64,000 nucleotides of DNA from an uncultured Anaerolinea sp. (lineage in GTDB: Bacteria; Chloroflexota; Anaerolineae; Anaerolineales; Villigracilaceae). The DNA lies in the NCBI GenBank assembly GCA_964422545.1, contig CAYRBO010000016.1, positions 15,794 through 79,793 of the forward strand. Reading direction: 5' to 3'. Positions 22,970 through 52,105 of this stretch are shown here, piece by piece. A program made the translations under genes and the position numbers. Below the pieces are notes generated by a model. That model made no database searches. It worked only from the letters and a program-made list of their open reading frames with translations, and was not told where the DNA came from. Position 1 is the first letter of the stretch. Every line of letters starts with the position of its first letter.

Positions 22970-23425
22970 CTACGATTGATTGGTGATTGGTGGCAGTTTT
23001 TTGACGAAATGCACCAGCCGCTCGGCTTCCTCGTATCCCAGCCGTTTGTGCGCGGCGATGCTAGTTTCATTCTCAACCCAGGTATCTGAGGCCATCTCCG
23101 TCAAGCCACGCTCACGCGCCCAGACTTCCATCGCCCGCACCAACGCGCCACCCACGCCTTGGCGGCGCAGGTCTTCGTCCACATACCAGCCTTCGATGTA
23201 GCCGACCGGCCCCGTTTCGCAGCCATCGGCATATTTACGAATGCCGCCCTCCAAGAAACCGCCGGGCCGTCCATCGGGACGAACGGCGATGAAAACCGGC
23301 GTATCGGGGGCGGCCAGCAAATCGCGCATTTCGGCTTCGTGTTCTGCAGGAGTGGCATCGGGCCATAGCGCGAGGCGCATACGCAGCCACTCACTCCAAT
23401 CCGATTGTTCCAGTCGTCGAATCAT
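22970..23425 (-). CDS. GNAT N-acetyltransferase, AAC(6')-I-like (aminoglycoside 6'-N-acetyltransferase family)
   Basis: Recalled similarity to AAC(6')-Iy/Iz: ...RLALWPD..., FLEG..V....RRQGVGGALV, EMASDT..EN..S...H..LG.EE.ER...F.K. Confidence 0.6.
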   Translation of the reverse strand: MIRRLEQSDWSEWLRMRLALWPDATPAEHEAEMRDLLAAPDTPVFIAVRPDGRPGGFLEGGIRKYADGCETGPVGYIEGWYVDEDLRRQGVGGALVRAMEVWARERGLTEMASDTWVENETSIAAHKRLGYEEAERLVHFVKKLPPITNQS

Positions 23426-23428
23426 CGG

Positions 23429-24274
23429 TTATTTCCTTCTCATCATGAATTTTCGCGCAAAATCCCGGGCAGATTCGACGGGATTTTCGCTTTCGCCAAT
23501 CTCGCGTACGCAGGCCGAGCCGACGATGACGCCATCGGCGAGTTGGCCTACGGCGGCGGCCTGCTCGGGATCACCAATGCCAAAGCCGACGCAGACGGGG
23601 ATATCGGTATGCTGGCGCACCCGCTCAATCAGTTTGCCGAGGCCACTGGTGATGTCTTTGCGCGCCCCGGTGACGCCGGTGACACTGACGAGGTAGATGA
23701 ACCCCTGGGCCTTGCGGGCGACGATTTCCATGCGTTCGTCGGGGGTGGTGGGGGCGAGCATGGTGATGAGGGGTAATGGCCCGTCTGGTAGGGGCGTTGC
23801 ATGCAATGCCCCTACAAATTCATCCGCTTCTTCGGGCGGCAGGTCGGGGATGATGAAACCATCGGCCCCGGCTTCGGCGGCATCGCGGATGAAACGCTCC
23901 AGCCCGTAGGCTAACATCGGGTTGTAGTAACCCATCAGAATCAGAGGAATCTCCACGCCGCGGCGGCGCAGTTCGGCGACGGCAGCGAGTACGTCTTTTG
24001 TTGTGACGCCTTTTTCGAGGGCGGTTTGGGTGGCTTTCTGAATGACGGGGCCATCGGCCAGCGGGTCGGAGAAAGACAGGCCAACTTCGATCAGGTCGGC
24101 GCCGTTTTTGGCCAGGGCTTCGAGAACATCAATCGAGGTGGGGATGTCTGGATAGCCGACGGGGTAGTAAGGCATGAAGATGGGTGTGCTGCGGAAGGCG
24201 GTTTGGATGCGGTTCATAGCTGCTCCAATTGGTGATTGTTGGATTGGGTGATTTGGTGATTGAAAATCGCTCAA
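23429..24274 (-). CDS. trpA: Tryptophan synthase alpha chain
   Basis: Full-length TrpA-like sequence (..YPDIPTS..., GFGI). Last gene of the trp operon. Confidence 0.9.
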   Translation of the reverse strand: MSDFQSPNHPIQQSPIGAAMNRIQTAFRSTPIFMPYYPVGYPDIPTSIDVLEALAKNGADLIEVGLSFSDPLADGPVIQKATQTALEKGVTTKDVLAAVAELRRRGVEIPLILMGYYNPMLAYGLERFIRDAAEAGADGFIIPDLPPEEADEFVGALHATPLPDGPLPLITMLAPTTPDERMEIVARKAQGFIYLVSVTGVTGARKDITSGLGKLIERVRQHTDIPVCVGFGIGDPEQAAAVGQLADGVIVGSACVREIGESENPVESARDFARKFMMRRK

Positions 24275-25477
24275 TCACTCAATCGCCAAATCACCAAATT
24301 CTTTCATCACAGTGTTCAAGTCTTTATCACCGCGACCAGAGAGATTGACGAGGATGATTTGGTCGGGGCGCATGTGGGGAGCGCGTTTGAGCACTTCGGC
24401 AATGGCATGGGACGATTCGAGGGCCGGGATGATGCCTTCGGTGCGGCACAAGGTCTGGAAGGCGCTCAGGGCTTCTTCGTCGGTGGCGGAGGTGTAGAAG
24501 GCGCGTTCCTGGTCGCGCAGGTGGGCGTGTTCGGGGCCGATGGCGGCGTAATCGAGACCCGCCGAAACAGAATGAGTTTCAGCGATTTGGCCGTCTTCGG
24601 TTTGCAGGACAAAGGTGCGGGTTCCATGAATCACGCCCAGGCGTCCACGCAAGGGGTCGCCAAAGCGGGCAGCATGTTTGCCGGTGGCGATTCCGCTGCC
24701 GCCCGCTTCTACCCCAATCAGTTCGACATCCGCATCCTCCACAAAGCCGCTGAAAACACCGATGGCATTCGACCCGCCGCCAACACAGGCGATGACCGTA
24801 TTGGGCAGGCGGCCTACTTCTTTAAGAACCTGTTCGCGGGCTTCGCGGCCAATTACGGACTGGAATTCGCGCACGATGGTGGGGTAGGGATGCGGGCCGA
24901 GGGCCGAGCCAAGCAGGTAGTGGGTGGCGCGGACGTTGGTGACCCAGTCGCGGATGGCTTCGTTGATGGCGTCTTTGAGGGTTTGCGTACCGCTGGTAAC
25001 AGGGCGGACTTCTGCGCCAAGCAGTTTCATGCGGAAGACGTTGGGTTCCTGGCGGGCGATGTCTACCGCACCCATGTAAACGACACATTCCAGGCCGAGC
25101 AGGGCGGCGGCGGTGGCAGATGCGACTCCGTGCTGGCCTGCGCCGGTTTCGGCAACGATGCGGCCTTTGCCCATCCGTTTGGCGAGCAGGGCCTGACCGA
25201 GGGCGTTGTTGATTTTGTGCGCGCCGGTGTGGGCCAGGTCTTCACGCTTGAGGTAGATTTGCGCGCCGCCGAGCTGTTCAGAGAGCCGCCGGGCGTAGGT
25301 GAGCGGGGTGGGGCGGCCAACGAAGTCGGCCAGCAGTTTGTTGAACTCGCGCTGGAATTCGGGGTCGCGCTGTGCGGCGACAAACTCGGCTTCGAGTTCG
25401 GTTAATGCGGGCATGAGGGTTTCGGGGACGTATTGTCCGCCGTAGGGGCCGAATTTTGGGGAGAGGAGGGTGGGCAT
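24275..25477 (-). CDS. trpB: Tryptophan synthase beta chain
   Basis: [16 protein letters not shown]-lysine region [17 protein letters not shown]. Stop abuts the trpA start. Confidence 0.9.
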
Positions 25478-25514: not shown

Positions 25515-26177
25515 TTATTGGCGAACGGCCTGAACGAAGGCTTGTATTTTGGCCGGGTCTTTGACGCCGGGGGCCGATTCGACGCCGGAGGCAACGTCCA
25601 CGCCCCAGGGTTGGACGCGGGCGATGGCTTCAGCCACGTTTTCGGGGGTCAGGCCGCCTGCCAGCAGGAGCGGAATCTGTTTGGCGAGTTGGGCGGCGGC
25701 GTCCCAATCGGCGGTGACGCCTGAGCCGCCGTACAGGCCGGGGACGGAGGCATCGGCCAACAAGGCAGGGTTGGCAACGGATAGGAACGGATAAACGGAT
25801 GGCGTCAACGGATAGGAACGGATAAACGGATGGTTGTCAACGGATGAATCGGATGACAAACGAATGGCTTTGAAGGCGCGGGGGCCGAGTTCGGCCAGCA
25901 TTTCGGGGGGTTCGTCGCCGTGCAGTTGGGCCAGGTGCAATTGAGCGGTTTCCAAGATGGAACGGATTTCTGAAACGGATGAGTTGACGAAAACGCCAAC
26001 CAGGACAATTTCAGGACGTTTTTGGCGTAAAACGGATGCAATCTTGCGGCAGGTCTCCGGGGCAATGCAGCGCGGGCTTTTGGGGTAGAAATTGAAGCCG
26101 AGCATGTCCGCGCCCGCTTCGATGGCGGCGAGGGCGTCGGGGAGGGTTTTCAGGCCACAAATCTTTATCTTAGTCAT
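25515..26177 (-). CDS. trpF: Phosphoribosylanthranilate isomerase, with an in-frame tandem-repeat insertion
   Basis: Real start MTKIKICGL at 26177. The upstream part of the ORF is encoded by the GCAGAAT repeat and is not genuine. A ~30-aa insert NHPFIRSYPLTPSVYPFLSVANP is encoded by tandem AACGGAT-type repeats at 25774-25865. Confidence 0.8.
   Translation of the reverse strand: MTKIKICGLKTLPDALAAIEAGADMLGFNFYPKSPRCIAPETCRKIASVLRQKRPEIVLVGVFVNSSVSEIRSILETAQLHLAQLHGDEPPEMLAELGPRAFKAIRLSSDSSVDNHPFIRSYPLTPSVYPFLSVANPALLADASVPGLYGGSGVTADWDAAAQLAKQIPLLLAGGLTPENVAEAIARVQPWGVDVASGVESAPGVKDPAKIQAFVQAVRQ
25774..25865. repeat. Tandem 32-bp direct repeat (caacggataggaacggataaacggatgg x2 plus a partial copy) inside the trpF coding sequence
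   Basis: Directly visible tandem duplication. Translated in frame as HPFIRSYPLTPSVYPFLSV. Confidence 0.7.
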
Positions 26178-26265
26178 AGGAAAATGCAGAATGCAGAATG
26201 TAGAATGTAGAATGCAGAATGTAGAATGATGAATGCGGAGCGCAGAATATTCTGCATTCATCATT
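26178..26265. repeat. Heptamer (GCAGAAT/GTAGAAT) tandem array with an inverted partner (attctgcattcatcattctacat) forming a long hairpin, trpC-trpF intercistronic
   Basis: aatgcagaatgcagaatgtagaatgtagaatgcagaatgtagaatgatgaatgcgg...cagaatattctgcattcatcattctac. Confidence 0.7.
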
Positions 26266-27114
26266 CTACATTTGGGCTAGTTCCCTTATCTTGGCCGGAA
26301 TATCCTCCGCTGTCACCAGGGCTTCGCCGACCAGGATGGCGTCTACGCCGATTTTTTGCAGGCGGGCGACATCGGCGGCGGTGAAGATGCCAGATTCGGC
26401 GACGAGGGTGATTTCGGCGGGAATGAGGGGGCGAATCCGTTCGGTGGTTTCGAGCGAGACTTCAAATGTGGACAGGTTGCGATTGTTGATGCCGATGAGC
26501 CGGATGCCAGGGATTTTGAGGGCGCGTTCGGTTTCGGCTTCGTTGTGGACTTCGACCAGGGCGGCGAGCCCCAGGCTGAGGGCGCAGGCGTGCAAGTCGG
26601 CGAAGCGGGCGTCGTCGGGCAGGGCGGCGGCGATGAGCAGGATGGCGTCGGCGCCGTTGGCGCGGGCTTCGTAGATTTGGGAGTCGTCAATGATGAAATC
26701 TTTTCGTAAGAGCGGTAATTGGTGATTGGTAATTCGTAATTGGCGCAGGGTTTCGAGTTTGCCCTGGAAGAATTTTTCGTCGGTGAGGACGCTGATGGCG
26801 GATGCGCCGTTTTGGGTGTAGAGGTCGGCTACCTGGAGCAGGTCGAGGTGTGGGGCCAAAACCCCCTTCGAGGGGCTGGCGCGCTTGAGTTCGGCAATCA
26901 GGGCGGGGGGCTTTTCCCTCACCCCTATCCCCTCTCCCGGTGGGAGATGGGGATTTTTCCCCCTTCCCCCGTTGAGGGAAGGGCCGGAGATGAGAGCAGC
27001 GAGAAAATCGCGAGGCGCAGGGGAAGATTCTGCGGCGCGGCGCAGGGCCGGGGCGTCGAGCGCCGCGATTTCCAGGCGTTTTTGTTCGAGGATGGTTTCG
27101 AGGATGTTGGTCAA
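26266..27114 (-). CDS. trpC: Indole-3-glycerol phosphate synthase, with an in-frame palindromic mini-insertion
   Basis: IGPS motifs (LIAELKRASPSKG...). TTG start at 27114 with GGAGG 7 nt upstream. A ~25-aa insert GPSLNGGRGKNPHLPPGEGIGVREKPP is encoded by the palindromic element at 26910-26990. Confidence 0.85.
   Translation of the reverse strand: MTNILETILEQKRLEIAALDAPALRRAAESSPAPRDFLAALISGPSLNGGRGKNPHLPPGEGIGVREKPPALIAELKRASPSKGVLAPHLDLLQVADLYTQNGASAISVLTDEKFFQGKLETLRQLRITNHQLPLLRKDFIIDDSQIYEARANGADAILLIAAALPDDARFADLHACALSLGLAALVEVHNEAETERALKIPGIRLIGINNRNLSTFEVSLETTERIRPLIPAEITLVAESGIFTAADVARLQKIGVDAILVGEALVTAEDIPAKIRELAQM
26910..26990. repeat. Palindromic mini-element (CCCTCACCCC-n3-CCCCTCTCCC-n4-GGGAGAKGGGA) inserted in frame in trpC
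   Basis: Shares a ~45-bp core with 36980-37035 in priA. Both are translated in the same frame as LPxGEGxGVR. Confidence 0.6.
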
Positions 27115-27179
27115 CGGATGGCCTCCGGCGAAGCGAATAAACGGATTTTGGGAACGGATATGGAACGGATAAACGGATT
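27115..27179. repeat. AACGGAT-type repeats (AUCCGUU in the mRNA sense) filling the trpD-trpC intercistronic gap
   Basis: aataaacggattttgggaacggatatggaacggataaacggattttaagcggatgg: six copies of the ..cggat.. motif. Confidence 0.6.
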
Positions 27180-28211
27180 TTAAGCGGATGGCGAGGTGAA
27201 GGATTGGCTGAATTCGACGAGTTGGGTCATTTTGGCAAGGGCCGCGCCGCTGGCAAGGGAGTCTTCGGCTTCGGCCAGGGCGGTTTTGATGTCGCCGGTT
27301 TGGGCGGCCAGGGTGCCGGCAGCGTTGAGCAGGACGGCATCGCGGCGAGGGCCGTTCAGTTTGCCAGTGAACAAGTCACGCATCATCTGGGCTGCTTCGT
27401 CGGGAGTGCCGCCGCGCAGGTCGGCGATGGTGGCGCGCGGCAGGCCGTAGTCGGCGGGGTCGAGGTCGTAGGTGCGGACGGCGCCATCTTGCAGGTGGCT
27501 GACGCGGTTGGGGCCGAGCAGGCTGAGTTCGTCTGTCCCGCCTGCGCCGTGAATGACCAGCGCGGCATGGCTGCCGAGTTCGTTGAGAACGTGGGCAAGC
27601 GGTTCGGTGAGCGTGGGAGCGTAAACGCCCGTCAGTTGGATTTCGGCCCCGGCGGGGTTGGTGAGAGGCCCGAGGACGTTGAAGATGGTGCGCTGGCCGA
27701 TTTCCTTGCGCGGGCCAACGGCATGTTTCATAGCCGGGTGGAATTTGGGCGCGAACATGAAGCCGATGCCGATTTCGTCAATGGCCTGGCCGACCTGTTC
27801 GGGGGTCAGGTCGAGGTTGAGACCCAGGGCAGCCAGCACGTCGGCGCTGCCGCATTGGGAGGATGCGGCGCGGTTGCCGTGTTTGGCCACCCGTCGCCCG
27901 GTTCCGGCCACGACAAAGGCTACGGCGGTGGAGATATTGAAGGTGTGCGCGCCATCGCCGCCGGTGCCGACGACATCGTAAATGGGTTGGGAGCGGTCGC
28001 TGACCGGCACTTTGAGCGAAACGGCCCGCATGGCGCGGACTGAGCCGGTAATTTCTTCGACCGTTTCGCCTTTCATGCGCAGGGCGACGAGGTAGGCGCC
28101 AATTTGGGCCGGGGTGGCCTGGCCGGTCATGATGATGGTCATGGCCTGCTCGGCTTCTTCGGCGGTCAGGTCGGTGCGATTAATGACTTGGGCGATAAAG
28201 GGTTTTAACAT
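27180..28211 (-). CDS. trpD: Anthranilate phosphoribosyltransferase
   Basis: GTGGDG motif. Real start MLKPFIAQVI at 28211 with a GGAGG RBS. The ORF extension to 28265 is repeat-encoded. Confidence 0.85.
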   Translation of the reverse strand: MLKPFIAQVINRTDLTAEEAEQAMTIIMTGQATPAQIGAYLVALRMKGETVEEITGSVRAMRAVSLKVPVSDRSQPIYDVVGTGGDGAHTFNISTAVAFVVAGTGRRVAKHGNRAASSQCGSADVLAALGLNLDLTPEQVGQAIDEIGIGFMFAPKFHPAMKHAVGPRKEIGQRTIFNVLGPLTNPAGAEIQLTGVYAPTLTEPLAHVLNELGSHAALVIHGAGGTDELSLLGPNRVSHLQDGAVRTYDLDPADYGLPRATIADLRGGTPDEAAQMMRDLFTGKLNGPRRDAVLLNAAGTLAAQTGDIKTALAEAEDSLASGAALAKMTQLVEFSQSFTSPSA

Positions 28212-28228
28212 AAGGGCCTCCGGAAAAT

Positions 28229-28281
28229 TCAAAATGAAGAATGCAGAGTGCAGAATATTCTTCATTCTGAATTCTGCATTT
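28229..28281. repeat. GCAGAAT heptamer hairpin element, trpG-trpD intercistronic
   Basis: aatgaagaatgcagagtgcagaatattcttcattctgaattctgcattt. Confidence 0.65.
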
Positions 28282-28282
28282 G

Positions 28283-28846
28283 TTAAAGGTTCAGGAAGTT
28301 TTGCAAGATTTGCTTGCCGTGCTGGGTAAGAATCGATTCGGGATGGAATTGAACGCCGTAAGTTTCGGCGGTTTTATGTTTCAAGCCCATAATTTCACCT
28401 TCGGCGGTGAAAGCGGTCACTTCCAATTCGGCGGGGACGGGCGATTCGACAATCAGCGAGTGGTAGCGGGTGGCTTCAAAGGGGCTGGGGATGCCGTTGA
28501 ACAATCCCTGGCCGTAGTGGTGGACGCGCGAGGTTTTGCCATGCATCAGGCGCGGGGCGCGCGAGACTTTGCCGCCATAGATTGCGCCCAGGCATTGATG
28601 ACCCAGGCAAACGCCCAAAACAGGAATTTTGCCAGTGAAATGGCGCATGGCCTCGGCGGAGATGCCTCCATCGGCGATGGGTTCGCCAGGGCCGGGAGAA
28701 ATGACCAGGTGCGAAGGCTGGAGCGCAATCAACTCGTCGAGCGTAATCTGGTCATTGCGAAAGACGCGAATATCGGCGCCGAGTTCGCCGAAGTATTGGA
28801 CGAGGTTGTAGGTGAAGGAGTCGTAGTTATCAATGAGGATGAGCAT
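28283..28846 (-). CDS. trpG: Anthranilate synthase component II (glutamine amidotransferase)
   Basis: [18 protein letters not shown]..., catalytic Cys in GVCLGHQ, triad His in the HPES segment. Confidence 0.85.
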
Positions 28847-28861
28847 AAGGAAAACCTTTCT

Positions 28862-28936
28862 AAATGCAGAATGATGAATGATGAACGCAGAATGAAGAGC
28901 GGTTTTTATTCTGCATTCTGCATTCTAACTTCTGCA
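28862..28936. repeat. GCAGAAT heptamer hairpin element, trpE-trpG intercistronic
   Basis: aaatgcagaatgatgaatgatgaacgcagaatgaagagcggtttttattctgcattctgcattctaacttctgcatt. Confidence 0.65.
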
Positions 28937-30397
28937 TTATTTTTCTTCCGCCATTTCGACCGCTTTCAGCACGGCGCGGGCTTTGTTGAGGGTTTCTTCG
29001 TATTCTTTGGCCGGGTCAGAATCGGCGACGACTCCGGCGCCAGCCTGCACGCTGACCGTCTGGCCGTGACCGACCAGGGTGCGGATGGCGATGCAGGTAT
29101 CCATGTTGCCGTCGAAGGAGAAGTAGCCGATTGCGCCAGCGTAAGGGCCGCGCGCGTCTGGCTCAAGGTCGGCGATGATTTCCATCGCGCGGACTTTGGG
29201 CGCGCCAGAGACCGTGCCAGCCGGGAAGGTAGCCCGCACCAGGTCGAAGGCGCTCAGTTCGGGGCGCAGCGTCCCTTCGACGTGCGAGACGATGTGCATG
29301 ACGTGCGAATAACGCTCGATGGTGAAAAACTCAGGCACTTTGACCGTGCCAAATTCGCAAACGCGTCCCAAGTCGTTGCGGCCCAGGTCAACCAGCATGA
29401 TGTGTTCGGCGCGTTCTTTGGGGTCGGCCAGCAGGTCGGCGGCCAGGGCCTGGTCGGCAGCGGTATCGGCTCCGCGTGGGCGCGTCCCGGCGATGGGGCG
29501 CAGGCTGGCTTTGCGGCCTTCGAGACGGACGAAAATCTCAGGCGAAGCGCCGACGATGTAGAACGGTTCGCCATCCAGGTCGCCAAAGTCGAAAAAGTAC
29601 ATGTAGGGCGAGGGGTTCAGCCGCCGCAGAGCGCGGTAGATGTCGAACGGGTCACTGTGGGCCGGGCGCGACAGGCGCTGTGAGAGCACGACCTGGAAAA
29701 TATCACCAGCGGCGATGTGTTCCTTGCCAATCCGCACGGCCTGTTCGTACTCGGCCTGGGTTAAGTTCGAGGTCACTTCAACGGCGGCAGGCTGCGGAGC
29801 ATCCGTTCCGCGCGGTAGCGGCAAACGGGCGCGTAAACGCGCTTCAATGTCGTCTAATTTGCGGTTGGCAGCGTCCACATCCCCATCAAAGGCATAAGTG
29901 ATGAGGTTGATGGTGTGGCGGGCGTGGTCGAAGGCGATGAGGGTATCGGCCAGCAGGAAAACTGATTCGGGCAGCGTGCCGCTTTGCAGGTGCTTTTGCA
30001 GGCGCGGCTCGAAGTAGCGGATGGTTTCGTAACCCAGGTAACCCACCAGCCCGCCGATAAAGCGCGGCAGGCCTTCGGGCAGTTCGGGGGTGAAGCCGGA
30101 TAACTGGGATTGCAGGTAGTGGAGCGGGTCTTGCCCCGGGGGGATTTGGATATGCTCGATGGCGTTTGCCGAGCGGCGTTCTACGCTCTGGCCTGTAATC
30201 CGATACTCGTAGCGTGGCTCAATGCCGATGAAGGAGTAGCGGGCGATGCGCTCGCCGCCTTGAACCGATTCGAGCAGGAAGGAGGGGCCGCCGCCGCGCA
30301 CCTTGAGATAGATGCTGGCCGGAGTATCGAGGTCGCCCGGCAGACGGCGGATGATGGGGGCGAGGCTGGTGGTAGTTTGGATGAGTTCGGTGACCAT
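28937..30397 (-). CDS. trpE: Anthranilate synthase component I
   Basis: Chorismate-binding family signature (..GAIGYFSFDGNMDTCIAIRT..). AAGGA RBS and ATG at 30397. Confidence 0.9.
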   Translation of the reverse strand: MVTELIQTTTSLAPIIRRLPGDLDTPASIYLKVRGGGPSFLLESVQGGERIARYSFIGIEPRYEYRITGQSVERRSANAIEHIQIPPGQDPLHYLQSQLSGFTPELPEGLPRFIGGLVGYLGYETIRYFEPRLQKHLQSGTLPESVFLLADTLIAFDHARHTINLITYAFDGDVDAANRKLDDIEARLRARLPLPRGTDAPQPAAVEVTSNLTQAEYEQAVRIGKEHIAAGDIFQVVLSQRLSRPAHSDPFDIYRALRRLNPSPYMYFFDFGDLDGEPFYIVGASPEIFVRLEGRKASLRPIAGTRPRGADTAADQALAADLLADPKERAEHIMLVDLGRNDLGRVCEFGTVKVPEFFTIERYSHVMHIVSHVEGTLRPELSAFDLVRATFPAGTVSGAPKVRAMEIIADLEPDARGPYAGAIGYFSFDGNMDTCIAIRTLVGHGQTVSVQAGAGVVADSDPAKEYEETLNKARAVLKAVEMAEEK

Positions 30398-30700
30398 AGA
30401 TGTCCTTTCTTAAGAGAATAGTCCCCTCCGTCCGTTGGGACGAGAGGGGACTCCCGTGGTACCACCCAATTTACGCTTGCTTAAGAAAAATCCCTGTTGT
30501 GATGCAACAGGGAAAGGAGAGCCAGCGTCACTTTTTCGGGTACGGCCAGGTTTGGCTTATACCCTCACCCTGTAACGGGAGTTCCCGGATTAGGTTACTT
30601 TTTGGGTTCCGCTGCCATCCGTTTTTCCGGTTGGTATCCGTTCCCATGTTCACCCGCTCAACTCGGTGGGCCATTCGGCTTCTGCGCTTTTACCGGATTC
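30398..30700 (-). promoter_or_regulatory. Tryptophan T-box riboswitch leader with intrinsic terminator
   Basis: In the minus-strand sense: T-box consensus AAAUUGGGUGGUACCACGGG (GGGUGGNACC core), directly followed by terminator GGGAGUCCCCUC-loop-GAGGGGACU plus UAUUCUCUU. Structured upstream hairpins (CCCUGUUGCAUCACAACAGGG). Lies immediately 5' of trpE. Confidence 0.6.
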
Positions 30701-30878
30701 ACACCAGGCACCGGCTCTCTGAAAATCGCTTTGAAGCGTACTCGTCCACGTCTTCGTTTTTGGTTGTTAAGTTGGGCGTGATTATATGCCGCAAAGCAGA
30801 TTTGTCAAGACAAAAACGGCAACAAAAAGAACTGCCCCACATGGGATTATGGAGCAGTTCCAGTTGAAATGGTGAGTA

Positions 30879-35871: not shown

Positions 35872-38481
35872 TTATAGCAAACTATGGGGTTCCACTTCAA
35901 CACGCCAGCCATTCAGGCCAGCCAGGTTCGGCAACAGTGAGACCGGCTCAGGCCCGCGCAGAATGACCTGCCAGCGGAAAATGTCATTGACGCGGGCAAA
36001 AAAACAGGGCGCGGGGCCAATCAGGTCGGTCTGGGTGCGTTTTTCGGTTTCGATGAGGGCTTTCAATCTCTGGGCCAGGGCACGTGCTTCGTCTTCGGCT
36101 TTGACCGGGTCGCGGTGGCGATATTCGAGCCGGAGCAAGCGCGAAAACGGCGGGTAGCGCAGCAAGCGGCGATTCTCGATTTCCATGCGGTAAAACCCGG
36201 CATAGTCGTGTCCTGCCGCCGCTCGGATGACCGGATGCTCGGGCATGAAAGTCTGCATGACGACCTTGCCGCCACGCGCCGAACGTCCCGCCCGCCCGGC
36301 GACCTGCGTCAGCAGTTGGAAGGCGCGCTCCCCGGCAAACGGGTCGGGCAGGTTCAGGCCCACATCGGCCAGCACAATCCCGACCAGCGTCACGAGCGGC
36401 AAATCGAGCCCTTTGGCGAGCATTTGCGTCCCGACCAGGATGTCAGCCTGGTGATTGGCGAAGTGCGTGAGGATGATTTCGTGGGCGTCTTTTTCGCGGG
36501 TGGTCTCCCAATCCCAGCGCAGGACGCGCGCCGATGGAAACATGGCCGCCACATCCGTTTCCACTTTTTCGCTGCCCAGCCCATAGGCGCGAATGTTCTT
36601 CCCGCCGCAGGCCGGGCAGGTCTGCGGCATTTTCCGGGAATAGCCACAGCGGTGACAAATCAGGCGGTTAACCGAAGAACCGGAAAACTGGTGAAGATGA
36701 TGCGTCAACGGCGTTTCGCAGTGCGGGCATTTGAGGACATGCCCACAATCGCGGCAGAAAACGTAGGTGGCCGTGCCGCGCCGGTTCAGGTATAAAATCG
36801 CCTGTTCACCGCGCTCAAGCACCTCGGCAATCGATTCAGAGAGTTCGCGGCTAAAAATGCCCCGGTTGCCCGACTTGAGTTCCTCGCGCATATCGACGAT
36901 GGATATGGGAGGCAGTCCACCCTCCAGGCTATCTGTTACCCCAAGATTGGCTGCGCGCTCCTTGAGTTCCAGCAGGCGCATTCCCCCACCCCTCACCCCC
37001 GGCCCCTCTCCCAGGGGGAGAGGGGAGATAGCACGGTATCTCGTTTCGACGGGCGGGGTGGCGCTGCCCAGCACCGTTACTGCGCCGCAGATTTTCCCAT
37101 AGATTTCCGCTGCCCGGACGGCAGAGTAAAACGGCGGCTCGGACTGGTAGTAGGAACTGTCGTGACACTCATCGACCACAATCAGCCCGACATCCGGCAG
37201 GGGCGTGAACAGAGCCGAGCGCGGCCCAATGACCAGTTTGAGTAACCCGGCCCGGGCGCGCCGCCAGGTATCGTAGCGCTCGCCATCCGACAGGCGTGAA
37301 TGCACCAGCCCGACCTGGCCGGGAAAACGGTCGAGGAAGCGGCGCACGGTTTGGGGCGTGAGGGCAATCTCTGGGACAAGGACAATCACCCCCCTCCCGC
37401 GCCGAATCGACTCGGCGGCAGCCCGCAGGTAGAGTTCGGTCTTGCCAGAACCGGTGATGCCGTGCAGGAGGAAGCCGGGATTCGTTACTCGATATTCGTT
37501 AGTCGATATTGGATGTTCGATATTCGAGGTTCGAGTATTCGAATATTCGAGGGTCGAGGGTCGAGAGTCAAAGGCGTTGAGAATTTCTTGCAAAGCCGAT
37601 TCCTGCTCGCCGGTGAGAATCACGTTTCGATTCCCAACTCCCAATTCCCGGTTGCCCAATTTGCCCAGCGGGTCGCGCCAGATTTCGCTCTCGAACAGGC
37701 GAATCAGGCCGCGTTCCTCCAACTCCTGCAAATCGGCCAGGGTGCAGCCCGATTGGGCATAGACCCAGGTAACGGCCACCGCGTCTGGCTCGTGGATGAG
37801 GAAGCGCAAGGCGGCGCCGCGCCGCGCGAGCGTATCGGCGGTTTTGCCCAGGTTGGGCAATTCCGCTTCGGCAATTTCGGGCGGAACGGCCAGCTGCGCC
37901 ATGCGGACGTATTTGGGGCGCACCGAGGGCGGCGGCAGGACGGCCTGTTTGCCCAACACCCCGCGCTTGACCAGGACCTCGGCGGTTTTACGCCACTCGA
38001 CGGGGCCAAAATGCCGGTCAATTTGCCGCCCGCGCAAGGGGTTGCGCTGCACGAACAGGTCGAGCAGGCGTTTTTCGACCTTGCCATCTGCCGTAGCCGG
38101 GGCGCGCAGGAGCGTGTAGAGCGTATCGGCCTGCTGGCTCAGACCGGTCGGCAAGAACAGGTTGATAACCGCCGAAAGCGGATTCAGGGTGGCTTGGGCC
38201 AGTTGGCGGGCAAAGGCCAGCTGCGGCCCGGTCAGCACCGGCTGGGGGTCGAGGATATTCAGAACCGGTTTCGGATTCGGCACCGAGGCCGAATCCATCA
38301 AGTCGAACACCACCCCCTGAACGGTCTGCGTCCCAAACGGCACGCTGACCAACTGCCCCGGGCCGACGGCCATCCCGGTTGGCAGGACGTAATCGAATTC
38401 GCCGGAAACAGCGGGCAGGTTGACGGCAACACGGGCAAAAGCCATGCGGCCATTATACGGCGATTTTCGCCAATCATCCAA
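35872..38481 (-). CDS. priA: Primosomal protein N' (replication restart helicase PriA), with two in-frame repeat insertions
   Basis: Walker A GITGSGKTE, DECHDSSY, helicase C motifs, Cys4 zinc finger (CRDCGHVLKCPHC...CHRCG). Inserts encoded by the palindromic element at 36980-37035 and the AT-rich palindromic repeat at 37480-37570. Confidence 0.8.
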   Translation of the reverse strand: MDDWRKSPYNGRMAFARVAVNLPAVSGEFDYVLPTGMAVGPGQLVSVPFGTQTVQGVVFDLMDSASVPNPKPVLNILDPQPVLTGPQLAFARQLAQATLNPLSAVINLFLPTGLSQQADTLYTLLRAPATADGKVEKRLLDLFVQRNPLRGRQIDRHFGPVEWRKTAEVLVKRGVLGKQAVLPPPSVRPKYVRMAQLAVPPEIAEAELPNLGKTADTLARRGAALRFLIHEPDAVAVTWVYAQSGCTLADLQELEERGLIRLFESEIWRDPLGKLGNRELGVGNRNVILTGEQESALQEILNAFDSRPSTLEYSNTRTSNIEHPISTNEYRVTNPGFLLHGITGSGKTELYLRAAAESIRRGRGVIVLVPEIALTPQTVRRFLDRFPGQVGLVHSRLSDGERYDTWRRARAGLLKLVIGPRSALFTPLPDVGLIVVDECHDSSYYQSEPPFYSAVRAAEIYGKICGAVTVLGSATPPVETRYRAISPLPLGEGPGVRGGGMRLLELKERAANLGVTDSLEGGLPPISIVDMREELKSGNRGIFSRELSESIAEVLERGEQAILYLNRRGTATYVFCRDCGHVLKCPHCETPLTHHLHQFSGSSVNRLICHRCGYSRKMPQTCPACGGKNIRAYGLGSEKVETDVAAMFPSARVLRWDWETTREKDAHEIILTHFANHQADILVGTQMLAKGLDLPLVTLVGIVLADVGLNLPDPFAGERAFQLLTQVAGRAGRSARGGKVVMQTFMPEHPVIRAAAGHDYAGFYRMEIENRRLLRYPPFSRLLRLEYRHRDPVKAEDEARALAQRLKALIETEKRTQTDLIGPAPCFFARVNDIFRWQVILRGPEPVSLLPNLAGLNGWRVEVEPHSLL
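36980..37035. repeat. Palindromic mini-element (same family as 26910-26990) inserted in frame in priA
   Basis: cccccacccctcacccccggcccctctcccagggggagaggggagata, translated as SPLPLGEGPGVRGGG. Confidence 0.6.
37480..37570. repeat. AT-rich degenerate tandem repeat built on the palindrome TCGAATATTCGA, in frame in priA
   Basis: cgatattcgttagtcgatattggatgttcgatattcgaggttcgagtattcgaatattcgagggtcgagggtcgag encodes ..TRTSNIEHPISTNEYRVTN.. just upstream of the Walker A motif. Confidence 0.5.
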
Positions 38482-46511: not shown

Positions 46512-47113
46512 TTTCTTTTACCGCTAAACTGTATTTTTGGAAGCAGCATAGGCGTCCTGGCTTTGTAGTCGGCATATTCTTGCCCAAACTCTTTGAGAAG
46601 CTTTCGCTCCTCGAACCAGGCCCCAACAAAAAAATACAGACTAAATACAATCCAGACTGCCAGGCGGTTGACGGTCATATCGGGCCAGGCCCACAAGAAG
46701 GCCAGCCCAGCCGTGTAGAGCGGGTGGCGGACATAAGCATACAGGCCATCGGTAACAAGCTTGTTTGGCGCGGTGGTTTCCAGCCCGGCCAGTTGGGTCA
46801 GCCCGGCGAACTCAAAAGGCCCGGTCTGCATCACCCCGGCCACCAGAGCAAAAAAGGCCGCGCCCTGAATGAGTACAGAGAGATACACCCAGGGTTCAGG
46901 AATCGTGTAGAGCGGGTGGTCAGGAAAGGTGAAAAGCATCAACAAGATCGGGAAAATACTGGCAACCGAGAATATGTTGTAAGAAAAGCGATATAACCGG
47001 TCGGAGGCCGGGCCCAAAAAACGACGCGCGCCATCTTTGACAGCGTGCGAGGCCAGGATGGAGTGGATAACACCCCATAGAATAGACGCAACGATAAGGT
47101 AGAGAGTTCCCAT
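46508..47113 (-). CDS. Membrane methyltransferase-fold protein (ICMT/NnrU/PEMT-like)
   Basis: GLYAYVRHPLYTAGLAFLWAWP matches the RHPxY motif of isoprenylcysteine carboxyl methyltransferase-family proteins. Five TM helices. Confidence 0.5.
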   Translation of the reverse strand: MGTLYLIVASILWGVIHSILASHAVKDGARRFLGPASDRLYRFSYNIFSVASIFPILLMLFTFPDHPLYTIPEPWVYLSVLIQGAAFFALVAGVMQTGPFEFAGLTQLAGLETTAPNKLVTDGLYAYVRHPLYTAGLAFLWAWPDMTVNRLAVWIVFSLYFFVGAWFEERKLLKEFGQEYADYKARTPMLLPKIQFSGKRK

Positions 47114-47225
47114 GTTCAGTGTTCAGTATTCAGTGTCCAGTATCCAGTGATCAGTAAGCAGTAAGCAGTGATCAGTAAGCAGTGGTCAGTGATTAGCGTA
47201 CTGATGACTTGAACCTGCTCACTAA
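47104..47225. repeat. CAGTNNN heptamer tandem array (11 units) with a downstream inverted partner
   Basis: ttcagtgttcagtattcagtgtccagtatccagtgatcagtaagcagtaagcagtgatcagtaagcagtggtcagtgattagcgtactgatgac. Confidence 0.7.
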
Positions 47226-52019: not shown

Positions 52020-52023
52020 GTAC

Positions 52024-52104
52024 TACAGTAATCAGTGTTCAGTAATCAGTTTCCAGTGGGTTTTCGCACTGATGACTGTTTACTGAACACTGTTCACTGA
52101 TACT
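52024..52104. repeat. CAGTNNN heptamer array with inverted partner between tRNA-Met and tRNA-Gly
   Basis: cagtaatcagtgttcagtaatcagtttccagtggg...cactgatgactgtttactgaacactgttcactgatactga. Confidence 0.65.
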
Positions 52105-52105
52105 G

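Follow-up and report, generated by a model that had tools for sequence, protein, structure and literature searches.

A heptanucleotide repeat, ATCCGTT as read in the mRNA (AACGGAT on the plus strand), forms arrays in the tryptophan operon of an uncultured Anaerolinea sp. (Chloroflexota, Anaerolineae); one of them encodes a whole connector of the enzyme TrpF and another runs from the trpD stop codon into the trpC start. The DNA analysed is a stretch of 64,000 nt (contig CAYRBO010000016.1, positions 15,794 to 79,793), here called the window, and our statements on the host genome are limited to these 64 kb. The names given to homologous sequences likewise assign the host to Anaerolineae and point to an organism known solely from metagenomic data. 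The operon is a minus-strand, T-box-controlled trpEGDCFBA. With a probability of about 0.7, we read the arrays as tolerated heptanucleotide repeat DNA that turns over by slippage and has been trivially co-opted at the trpC start, with no trp-specific job. This reading starts from the anatomy of the arrays, their behaviour toward the reading frame, their variation between relatives and their wide distribution, all of which were observed.

AACGGAT is present in 26 copies on both strands of the window, with respect to 8.66 +/- 3.09 expected from 100 dinucleotide shuffles (maximum 16). No shuffle reached 26, which bears out the expectation of an earlier note on this DNA that the motif would be enriched above chance. 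The plus strand carries 17 of the 26 copies, 15 of these within 25776-27178, and 20 of the 26 lie inside the trp operon, the rest of the window being at chance level. The ATCCGTT units follow each other nearly head to tail, with spacers of 0-7 nt (periods 8, 10, 13 and 14; composite 31 nt). Tandem Repeats Finder lists 73 rows for the window, of which 32, by manual count, show a period of 7, 14 or 21. Arrays of sister heptamers in the window, such as AATGCAG, keep strictly to period 7.

The trpF array: DNA anatomy, reading frame and protein context

The gene trpF (26177..25515, minus strand) encodes a phosphoribosylanthranilate isomerase (PRAI) of 220 aa. The array, at 25770..25859 on the minus strand, codes for the whole 30-aa connector between beta5 and beta6 (TrpF residues 107-136, LSSDSSVDNHPFIRSYPLTPSVYPFLSVAN) and contains seven exact heptamers, distributed over all three codon phases, together with two one-mismatch copies. 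Tandem Repeats Finder reports it at 25769-25845 with period 31, 2.4 copies, 89% matches and a score of 133. More specifically, two exact 28-nt units, CCATCCGTTTATCCGTTCCTATCCGTTG on the mRNA strand, lie 31 nt apart (25833..25806 and 25802..25775, minus strand) in codon phases 2 and 0, and are translated as HPFIRSYPL in one copy and PSVYPFLSV in the other. As the same unit is read in different frames, the repeat is a feature of the nucleotide sequence, and a protein-level repeat was rejected. The tandem duplication that the earlier note had described is therefore present, but with a unit of 31 nt, a length not divisible by 3, instead of 32 bp.

The frame of trpF is intact, and the identical 220-aa protein was found on contigs from 5 independent assemblies, indicating that the array is no assembly artefact. 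Frame preservation is explained by ATCCGTT being stop-free in every frame and by a total inserted length that is a multiple of 3. About 30 added residues had been proposed; 30 is the length of the whole repeat-derived connector, while the net excess is only 15 aa over the T. maritima PRAI and 16 aa over the plain 14-aa connector of three orthologs.

Residues 1-217 of TrpF align with the T. maritima PRAI (PDB 1LBM/1NSJ; E = 1.6e-38), and its homologs carry Pfam PF00697. This alignment places the 15-residue excess between beta5 (AFKAIRL) and beta6 (LLAD). Cys7 lies in the aligned KICG motif, Asp142 (LLAD) aligns with the Asp of ILLDT in the T. maritima enzyme, and both columns are invariant in two alignments of TrpF orthologs. 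The Cys of KICG and the Asp of LLxD are what we take to be the catalytic residues of PRAI. With full-length homology and these residues retained, TrpF is, as judged from its sequence, a predicted phosphoribosylanthranilate isomerase (PF00697). In its AlphaFold model the barrel has a predicted local distance difference test (pLDDT) score above 90 outside residues 107-160, and residues 107-136 are of low confidence and mostly coil. A control model of the ortholog P0074, which has a plain 14-aa connector, is likewise coil and of low confidence at this site, suggesting that the site forms an irregular surface connector whether the array is there or not. Alignment and models thus agree with the proposed location in a PRAI surface loop.

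Connector variation among TrpF orthologs

Connector boundaries could be set in 111 of the 120 nearest TrpF homologs in Anaerolineae (63-100% identity), giving lengths between 14 and 97 aa with peaks at 23 and 30-31 aa. A plain 14-mer of the GVPGxITGY type was found in three of the 111, and most of the other connectors carry peptides typical of the translation of an ATCCGTT core (SVYPFL, SVHPF, SIRESVTESV, SVPPSVPP).

Connector DNA was read at eight loci, the window and seven relatives (L006, L007, L009, L131, L132, L133 and L134), and an ATCCGTT core was present in all seven repeat-bearing connectors. The window has 7 exact copies, as does L007, whose TrpF is 93% identical. L006 has 10, with 54 extra nt in its trpF array, and L009 has 2, preceded by inverted AACCGGAT-like units. 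Connectors of L131, L132 and L133 (TrpF 65-70% identical) hold 2, 4 and 10 exact copies, respectively, and that of L134 none. According to phase, the heptamer is read as S-V, as P-F or P-L, or as I-R: the heptamer is conserved and the peptide is not.

The earlier note had held that an extra segment shared by orthologs would speak for an ancient feature and against a repeat insertion. The outcome is mixed. Since orthologs share the repeat-derived segment, it is old and clade-wide; since length and arrangement differ between them, it is also a live repeat locus.

Turnover of heptamer arrays between relatives

A second heptamer, AATGCAG, fills three spacers of the operon, in each case as an array together with its own inverted copy, forming a hairpin: the trpC-trpF spacer (26178..26265, minus strand; Tandem Repeats Finder period 7, 9.4 copies; RNA fold z = -3.4), the trpG-trpD spacer (28212-28282; z = -3.1) and the trpE-trpG spacer (28847-28936; z = -6.1). 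These hairpins might serve as mRNA stabilisers or processing sites. A hairpin or terminator role was rejected for the ATCCGTT arrays, which are unstructured as RNA (z = +0.97 in trpF, +0.27 in the trpD-trpC gap), unlike the AATGCAG arrays and a CAGTAAT array described below. GGTGATT arrays occur at the end of trpB, in the trpB-trpA spacer and inside trpC.

Relatives carry different heptamers at the same sites. When the window is compared with the ~92%-identical operon of L007, most indels fall in repeat patches, including the largest (38, 27, 15 and 14 nt); the remaining ones are of 1-9 nt and lie in variable T-box regions or beside spacers. The AATGCAG arrays differ from those of L007 by indels of 7 and 14 nt and, together with the 54-nt indel in the trpF array of L006, these represent the whole-unit changes in copy number that are the signature of slippage.

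From this pattern we infer slippage as the engine, local spreading of patches and the absence of a regulatory role. Units would be gained and lost by slipped-strand mispairing or unequal exchange between units, and arrays would seed new patches nearby, some of them inverted. Survival would be limited to harmless sites, such as intercistronic spacers, variable loops (Stem II of the T-box), gene termini and protein surface connectors. Within genes only the stop-free orientation would survive, as ATCCGTT is open in three frames and AACGGAT reads AAC GGA TAA. The trpF array is indeed in the stop-free orientation; by hand check, no frame of ATCCGTT in trpF or of AATTACC in trpC contains a stop, and TAA occurs in both complements. 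The beta5-beta6 connector of TrpF may have been occupied by the array since before the clade diversified, and would now be a hypervariable, probably disordered surface linker tolerated by the barrel. As the connector needs a minimum length to bridge the two strands, the array would expand and contract and rarely be lost outright. At the trpD-trpC junction co-option would be trivial, the last unit supplying the TTG start and first codons of trpC.

Distribution beyond the trp operon

A scan of 185,579 species genomes looked for triplets of AACGGAT with gaps of 0-3 nt. Such triple arrays were found in at least 120 stretches (loci L011-L130), compared with ~4 expected by chance according to our own arithmetic. 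Among the matches listed, ~42 are from Cyanobacteria (Microcoleus, Calothrix, Tychonema, Stigonema), 27 from Chloroflexota, including at least 6 contigs of the Anaerolineae metagenome-assembled genome (MAG) R24_97, and ~18 from Bacteroidota, the remainder belonging to other groups. The arrays in the listed loci, including those of MAG R24_97, are thus dispersed, many per genome and not tied to one set of genes.

A tblastn search with seven Trp proteins against the 120 listed loci returned one TrpE-like match and one weak glutamine-amidotransferase match. With 1 of the 120 listed loci carrying a trp-like gene, a trp-specific association of AACGGAT arrays was rejected. The earlier note had also considered the repeats as protein-binding sites; a trp-specific role of this kind is unlikely because the arrays are spread genome-wide and across phyla, away from trp genes. 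An excess of open reading frame (ORF) ends before AACGGAT-oriented arrays is an artefact, caused by the TAA inside the repeat. Each phylum shows its own period and terminus, ATCCGTTGCC in Cyanobacteria and ATCCGTTGAS in Chloroflexota. Triple arrays were also seen on 69 IMG/VR viral contigs (L135-L203).

The trpD-trpC junction and alternative explanations

The junction array (27113..27189, minus strand) extends across the trpD stop codon, a 65-nt spacer, the GGAGG Shine-Dalgarno sequence and the TTG start of trpC. The gene trpD occupies 28211..27180 (stop codon 27182..27180), and trpC, encoding an indole-3-glycerol-phosphate synthase (IGPS) of 282 aa, occupies 27114..26266 (TTG 27114..27112), both on the minus strand. 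Four exact ATCCGTT copies lie in the gap (27140, 27153, 27164, 27172), a fifth exact copy (27113) contains the TTG start and a sixth (27183), with one mismatch, overlaps the stop codon of trpD, so that the six copies reported earlier for this gap are a fair description. In the context of the last copy, ...GGAGGCC-ATCCG-TTG-ACC-AAC, the repeat provides the start and the first codons of trpC. The 282-aa TrpC is also called by gene callers on independent contigs.

This placement raises the question of whether the arrays act as cis-acting RNA sites, where an unstructured, pyrimidine-rich AUCCGUU would be bound by ribosomal protein S1, a cold-shock protein or another single-strand RNA-binding protein and would tune translation or mRNA stability. 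The gap array does lie directly upstream of GGAGG and a start codon and is unstructured, and L009 and L134 share the order array, GGAGG, ATCCG-TTG, while L132 has two copies ahead of an ATG. Several other Chloroflexota arrays lie just upstream of a Shine-Dalgarno sequence and start codon, and TAACTGA heptamer repeats have been proposed to act in this way (PMC4679880). In the close relatives L006 and L007, as well as in L133, the junction is instead free of arrays, with a short palindrome and an ATG start, and the two junction forms do not track relatedness. When arrays followed within 50 nt by a Shine-Dalgarno sequence and start codon were counted, no significant sense bias appeared (7 sense vs 4 antisense, p = 0.55). 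In addition, the repeat is tolerated in a coding region and, inverted, in a riboswitch loop, and no binding protein emerged as a candidate. We therefore consider such RNA sites unlikely, though worth keeping in view.

Several observations weigh against turnover by slippage without function. Within the 64-kb window the ATCCGTT family is found in the trp operon only. The ATCCGTT core is kept at both the trpF connector and the trpD-trpC junction across lineages whose TrpF is ~65% identical, whereas other spacers swap heptamer family; this persistence is equally compatible with a function at the DNA or RNA level and with concerted evolution. Compared with its flanks, the trpF array is no less conserved: 1-2 of 90 nt differ from L007 vs 37 of 570 in the rest of the gene. 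Three more exact copies lie in conserved, non-inserted trpF sequence (25961-25967, 25974-25980 and 26031-26037, minus strand; within IASVL, NSSVS and EIRSI), where ~0.05 would be expected by chance by our own arithmetic. Slippage does not account for these isolated copies, which could be seeds of the array or conversion products from it; relatives keep the stretch that holds them, some of the copies differing there by a single base. Finally, the Chloroflexota arrays share across genomes the consensus AATCCGTTnAAATCCGTTCAATCCGTTGAS (~28 nt, with the end ATCCGTTGAS) and many form palindromic pairs, a pattern more reminiscent of a dispersed element or a binding site than of independent slippage.

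The persistence of the core at two trp sites, the conservation of the trpF array, the three embedded copies and the cross-genome consensus terminus keep alive a functional or actively maintained reading of the arrays, to which we assign a small share of the probability. One form of it is an active, sequence-specific process that holds the arrays at fixed sites across Anaerolineae, either a heptamer-recognising nucleic-acid-binding protein or templated copying or gene conversion. It would fit the conservation of the ATCCGTT core and of the ATCCGTTGAS terminus across genomes and phyla, the conserved trpF array and the exact copies in conserved coding sequence; we regard it as improbable. If true, the sites in TrpF, TrpC and PriA (see below) would be natural hypervariable cassettes made by that process.

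The shared ~28-nt consensus and the palindromic pairs of the Chloroflexota copies are also what would be expected if the patches were copies of a defined mobile element, similar to miniature inverted-repeat transposable elements (MITE) or repetitive extragenic palindromic (REP) sequences and moved by a transposase, as are in-frame insertions in housekeeping genes like those of the Rickettsia palindromic elements (RPEs; PMC10969869) and the presence of arrays on the 69 viral contigs. The trp arrays, however, consist of direct repeats only, without inverted arms (z of +0.97 and +0.27), their length varies among relatives and their copy number shifts in repeat units. No flanking duplications were noticed in the alignments of relatives, in which no systematic search for them was made, and no transposase was linked to the arrays. 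A mobile element of this type is, in our view, quite improbable.

The finding of SVYPFL or SVHPF at the same position in dozens of orthologs could suggest that the repeat-encoded peptide is itself a selected feature of TrpF, for instance an interaction or oligomerisation motif. This is very improbable. A selected peptide would be expected to show synonymous drift with the peptide preserved, and the opposite is seen: it is the nucleotide heptamer that is conserved, read in three frames within and between orthologs. The segment is moreover predicted to be disordered, its length varies between 14 and 97 aa, and three orthologs lack any such peptide.

The T-box leader and its inverted patch

The leader of the operon (30763..30433, minus strand) matches the T-box family (Rfam RF00230) over its full length, 1-219, with 97.2 bits for a gathering score of 93. 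GAAUGGC is found at the position aligning with the specifier loop, and its UGG can be read as a Trp specifier codon, as predicted for a T-box whose specifier matches the pathway it controls. An inverted, 43-nt patch of the ATCCGTT family lies in the apical loop of Stem II (30647..30605, minus strand), where it appears as an insertion in the cmscan alignment. It contains two exact AACGGAU copies (30636-30642 and 30617-30623) together with degenerate ones, in the orientation opposite to that of the operon arrays, confirming the reversed motif noted before in the leader. This patch is kept in L006 and L007 and is decaying in L009. Inverted leader copies are absent from the T-box of L134, where other sequence takes their place, and from the regions upstream of trpE in L131, which has only a short loop sequence at the patch site, and in L132, which has another repeat family.

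A 56-nt leader segment is predicted to form duplexes of -56.5 kcal/mol with the trpF array and -52.3 kcal/mol with the gap array, compared with -43.4 +/- 3.1 kcal/mol (minimum -50.7) for the best duplexes of 30 shuffled leaders with anything in the operon. We give almost no credence to a function of long-range pairing between leader and body copies, which the earlier note had raised and by which AACGGAU of the Stem II loop, bound to AUCCGUU arrays lying 3.4-4.9 kb further downstream, would couple leader conformation to the expression of distal genes: although favoured in silico over shuffles, this complementarity is expected of patches that are inverted copies of one repeat, the trpF target sits in a translated region, and patch and arrays are not co-conserved (L134, L131 and L132 have arrays in the gap or in trpF without leader copies, L006 and L007 keep the patch without a gap array, and the patch decays in L009), so that pairing was rejected as a conserved function.

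In neither L131 nor L132 does the region upstream of trpE reach the Rfam T-box gathering score, although T-box-like sequence can be seen there. Both of these distant relatives also differ in operon layout, with trpE separated from a fused trpG-trpD by a tryptophanyl-tRNA synthetase-like gene (PF00579).

The binding sites of the TRAP protein in Bacillus consist of ~11 (G/U)AG triplets spaced 2-3 nt apart in the 5' leader, overlapping the antiterminator. Attenuation sites of this type were rejected for ATCCGTT, a 7-mer without (G/U)AG periodicity that lies in an intercistronic spacer and a coding region of an operon whose leader is a T-box. The repeat was also compared with a DnaA box, a -35 hexamer (TTGACA within ATCCGTTGACA) and the T-arm of tRNA, none of which fits the spacing or context.

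Other repeat patches in the operon and the window

The remaining genes of the operon, all on the minus strand, are trpE (30397..28937), trpG (28846..28283), trpB (25477..24275) and trpA (24217..23429).

Besides its start, trpC holds two other in-frame repeat patches. A GGTAATT/GGTGATT array of 4.3 copies (26714-26743, minus strand) encodes LRITNHQLP and adds 1 aa with respect to solved IGPS structures; it seems to have overwritten native sequence rather than lengthened TrpC. At this site L133 has another heptamer, CCTGACA, with 7 additional aa. The second patch, a G-rich quasi-palindromic element in frame before TrpC beta1 (SGPSLNGGRGKNPHLPPGEGIGVREKPP; about 26905-26990, minus strand), corresponds to ~20 aa extra compared with IGPS in the PDB. 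A shorter version is present in L007, L009 and L134, and none in L133. In trpA, a palindromic element, GTAGGGGCATTGCATGCAACGCCCCTAC, is in frame at 23775-23815 on the minus strand (VGALHATPLP), with other sequence and length in L007 and L009.

Outside the operon, a priA-like ORF of 869 uninterrupted aa (38481..35872, minus strand; Pfam PriA_3primeBD, DEAD, PriA_C) encodes a PriA helicase with two patches on the minus strand: an ATTCGAT-family array in frame just before Walker A (37480-37565) and a G-rich one that encodes PLPLGEGPGVRGGG (36983-37012). A CAGTAAT/CACTGAT heptamer hairpin fills the spacer between two tRNA genes (52020-52105; -39.4 kcal/mol, z = -7.6), and a related CAGTAAG/TGTTCAG array lies between two ORFs (47113-47190). 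Heptamer arrays also extend over the 3' ends of genes and code for their last residues, namely those of a GNAT protein (22970-22995, ending in TNHQSIV), TrpB (24275-24299, ending in FGDLAIE) and TrpD (27183-27195, ending in TSPSA).

Discussion

Heptamers are the most over-represented long simple-sequence repeats in bacteria, and polymerase slippage has been proposed for them (Mrazek 2007, as cited in PMC4692102 and PMC4679880). The short tandemly repeated repetitive (STRR) sequences of cyanobacteria are heptanucleotide arrays (Mazel 1990, as cited in PMC4692102). Like them, the repeats described here are short arrays of 7-nt units that belong to many families in a genome, lie mainly between genes, are often paired in inverted orientation and vary in length between close relatives, for which slippage was proposed; AACGGAT arrays themselves occur in Calothrix, Microcoleus and Tychonema. 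Unlike STRR, they are hosted by Anaerolineae, the ATCCGTT units are spaced by 0-7 nt and not strictly tandem, and arrays lie within conserved enzyme genes and a riboswitch loop.

TAACTGA arrays have been described in marine Beggiatoaceae, Cyanobacteria and Bacteroidetes, with an orientation rule set by stop codons and mostly peripheral insertions in ORFs (MacGregor 2015, PMC4679880). The ATCCGTT arrays are similar in being short direct arrays of a specific heptamer in distant phyla, including Cyanobacteria and Bacteroidota, with one orientation containing stops and the other translatable, and with some copies just upstream of starts or over stops. The heptamer is different, however, and AACGGAT arrays have no clear preference upstream of starts. 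Moreover, most TAACTGA copies within ORFs fall at the ends of proteins or belong to hypothetical ones, whereas the ATCCGTT array sits in the middle of a (beta-alpha)8 barrel, clade-wide.

In-frame insertion in protein-coding housekeeping genes is known from the RPEs of Rickettsia (reviewed in PMC10969869). As with RPEs, repeat DNA is found here in frame in unrelated housekeeping genes at fold-compatible positions. RPEs are palindromic, of fixed length (~150 bp) and encode a conserved peptide, in contrast to 7-nt units in variable number, read in several frames and with no palindrome in the trp copies. The GGGAATC and GGGGA(C/T)T repeats of Xanthomonas and Nostoc (PMC4692102) likewise form intergenic heptamer arrays within operons and vary site by site in length and sequence between close relatives; they are G-rich and quadruplex-forming, whereas no structure is predicted for ATCCGTT, which is not rich in G.

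Our literature search for heptamer repeats in Chloroflexi or Anaerolineae found no description. The present analysis extends to Anaerolineae the phenomenon known from Cyanobacteria, Beggiatoaceae and Xanthomonas, with the same heptamer in Cyanobacteria and Bacteroidota. It reveals no new regulatory mechanism for tryptophan synthesis. For the annotation of Chloroflexota MAGs, such patches inflate gene lengths and create odd start codons and spurious 'hypothetical' peptides.

In conclusion, the trp operon of this organism offers a clean natural case of repeat DNA inside essential enzyme genes, with one nucleotide unit translated in three frames. A connector of a (beta-alpha)8 barrel has been given over to a repeat array over long evolution, at lengths of 14-97 residues and without loss of the gene, which bears on the tolerance of proteins to insertions and on the shaping of proteins by selfish or slippage-prone DNA.

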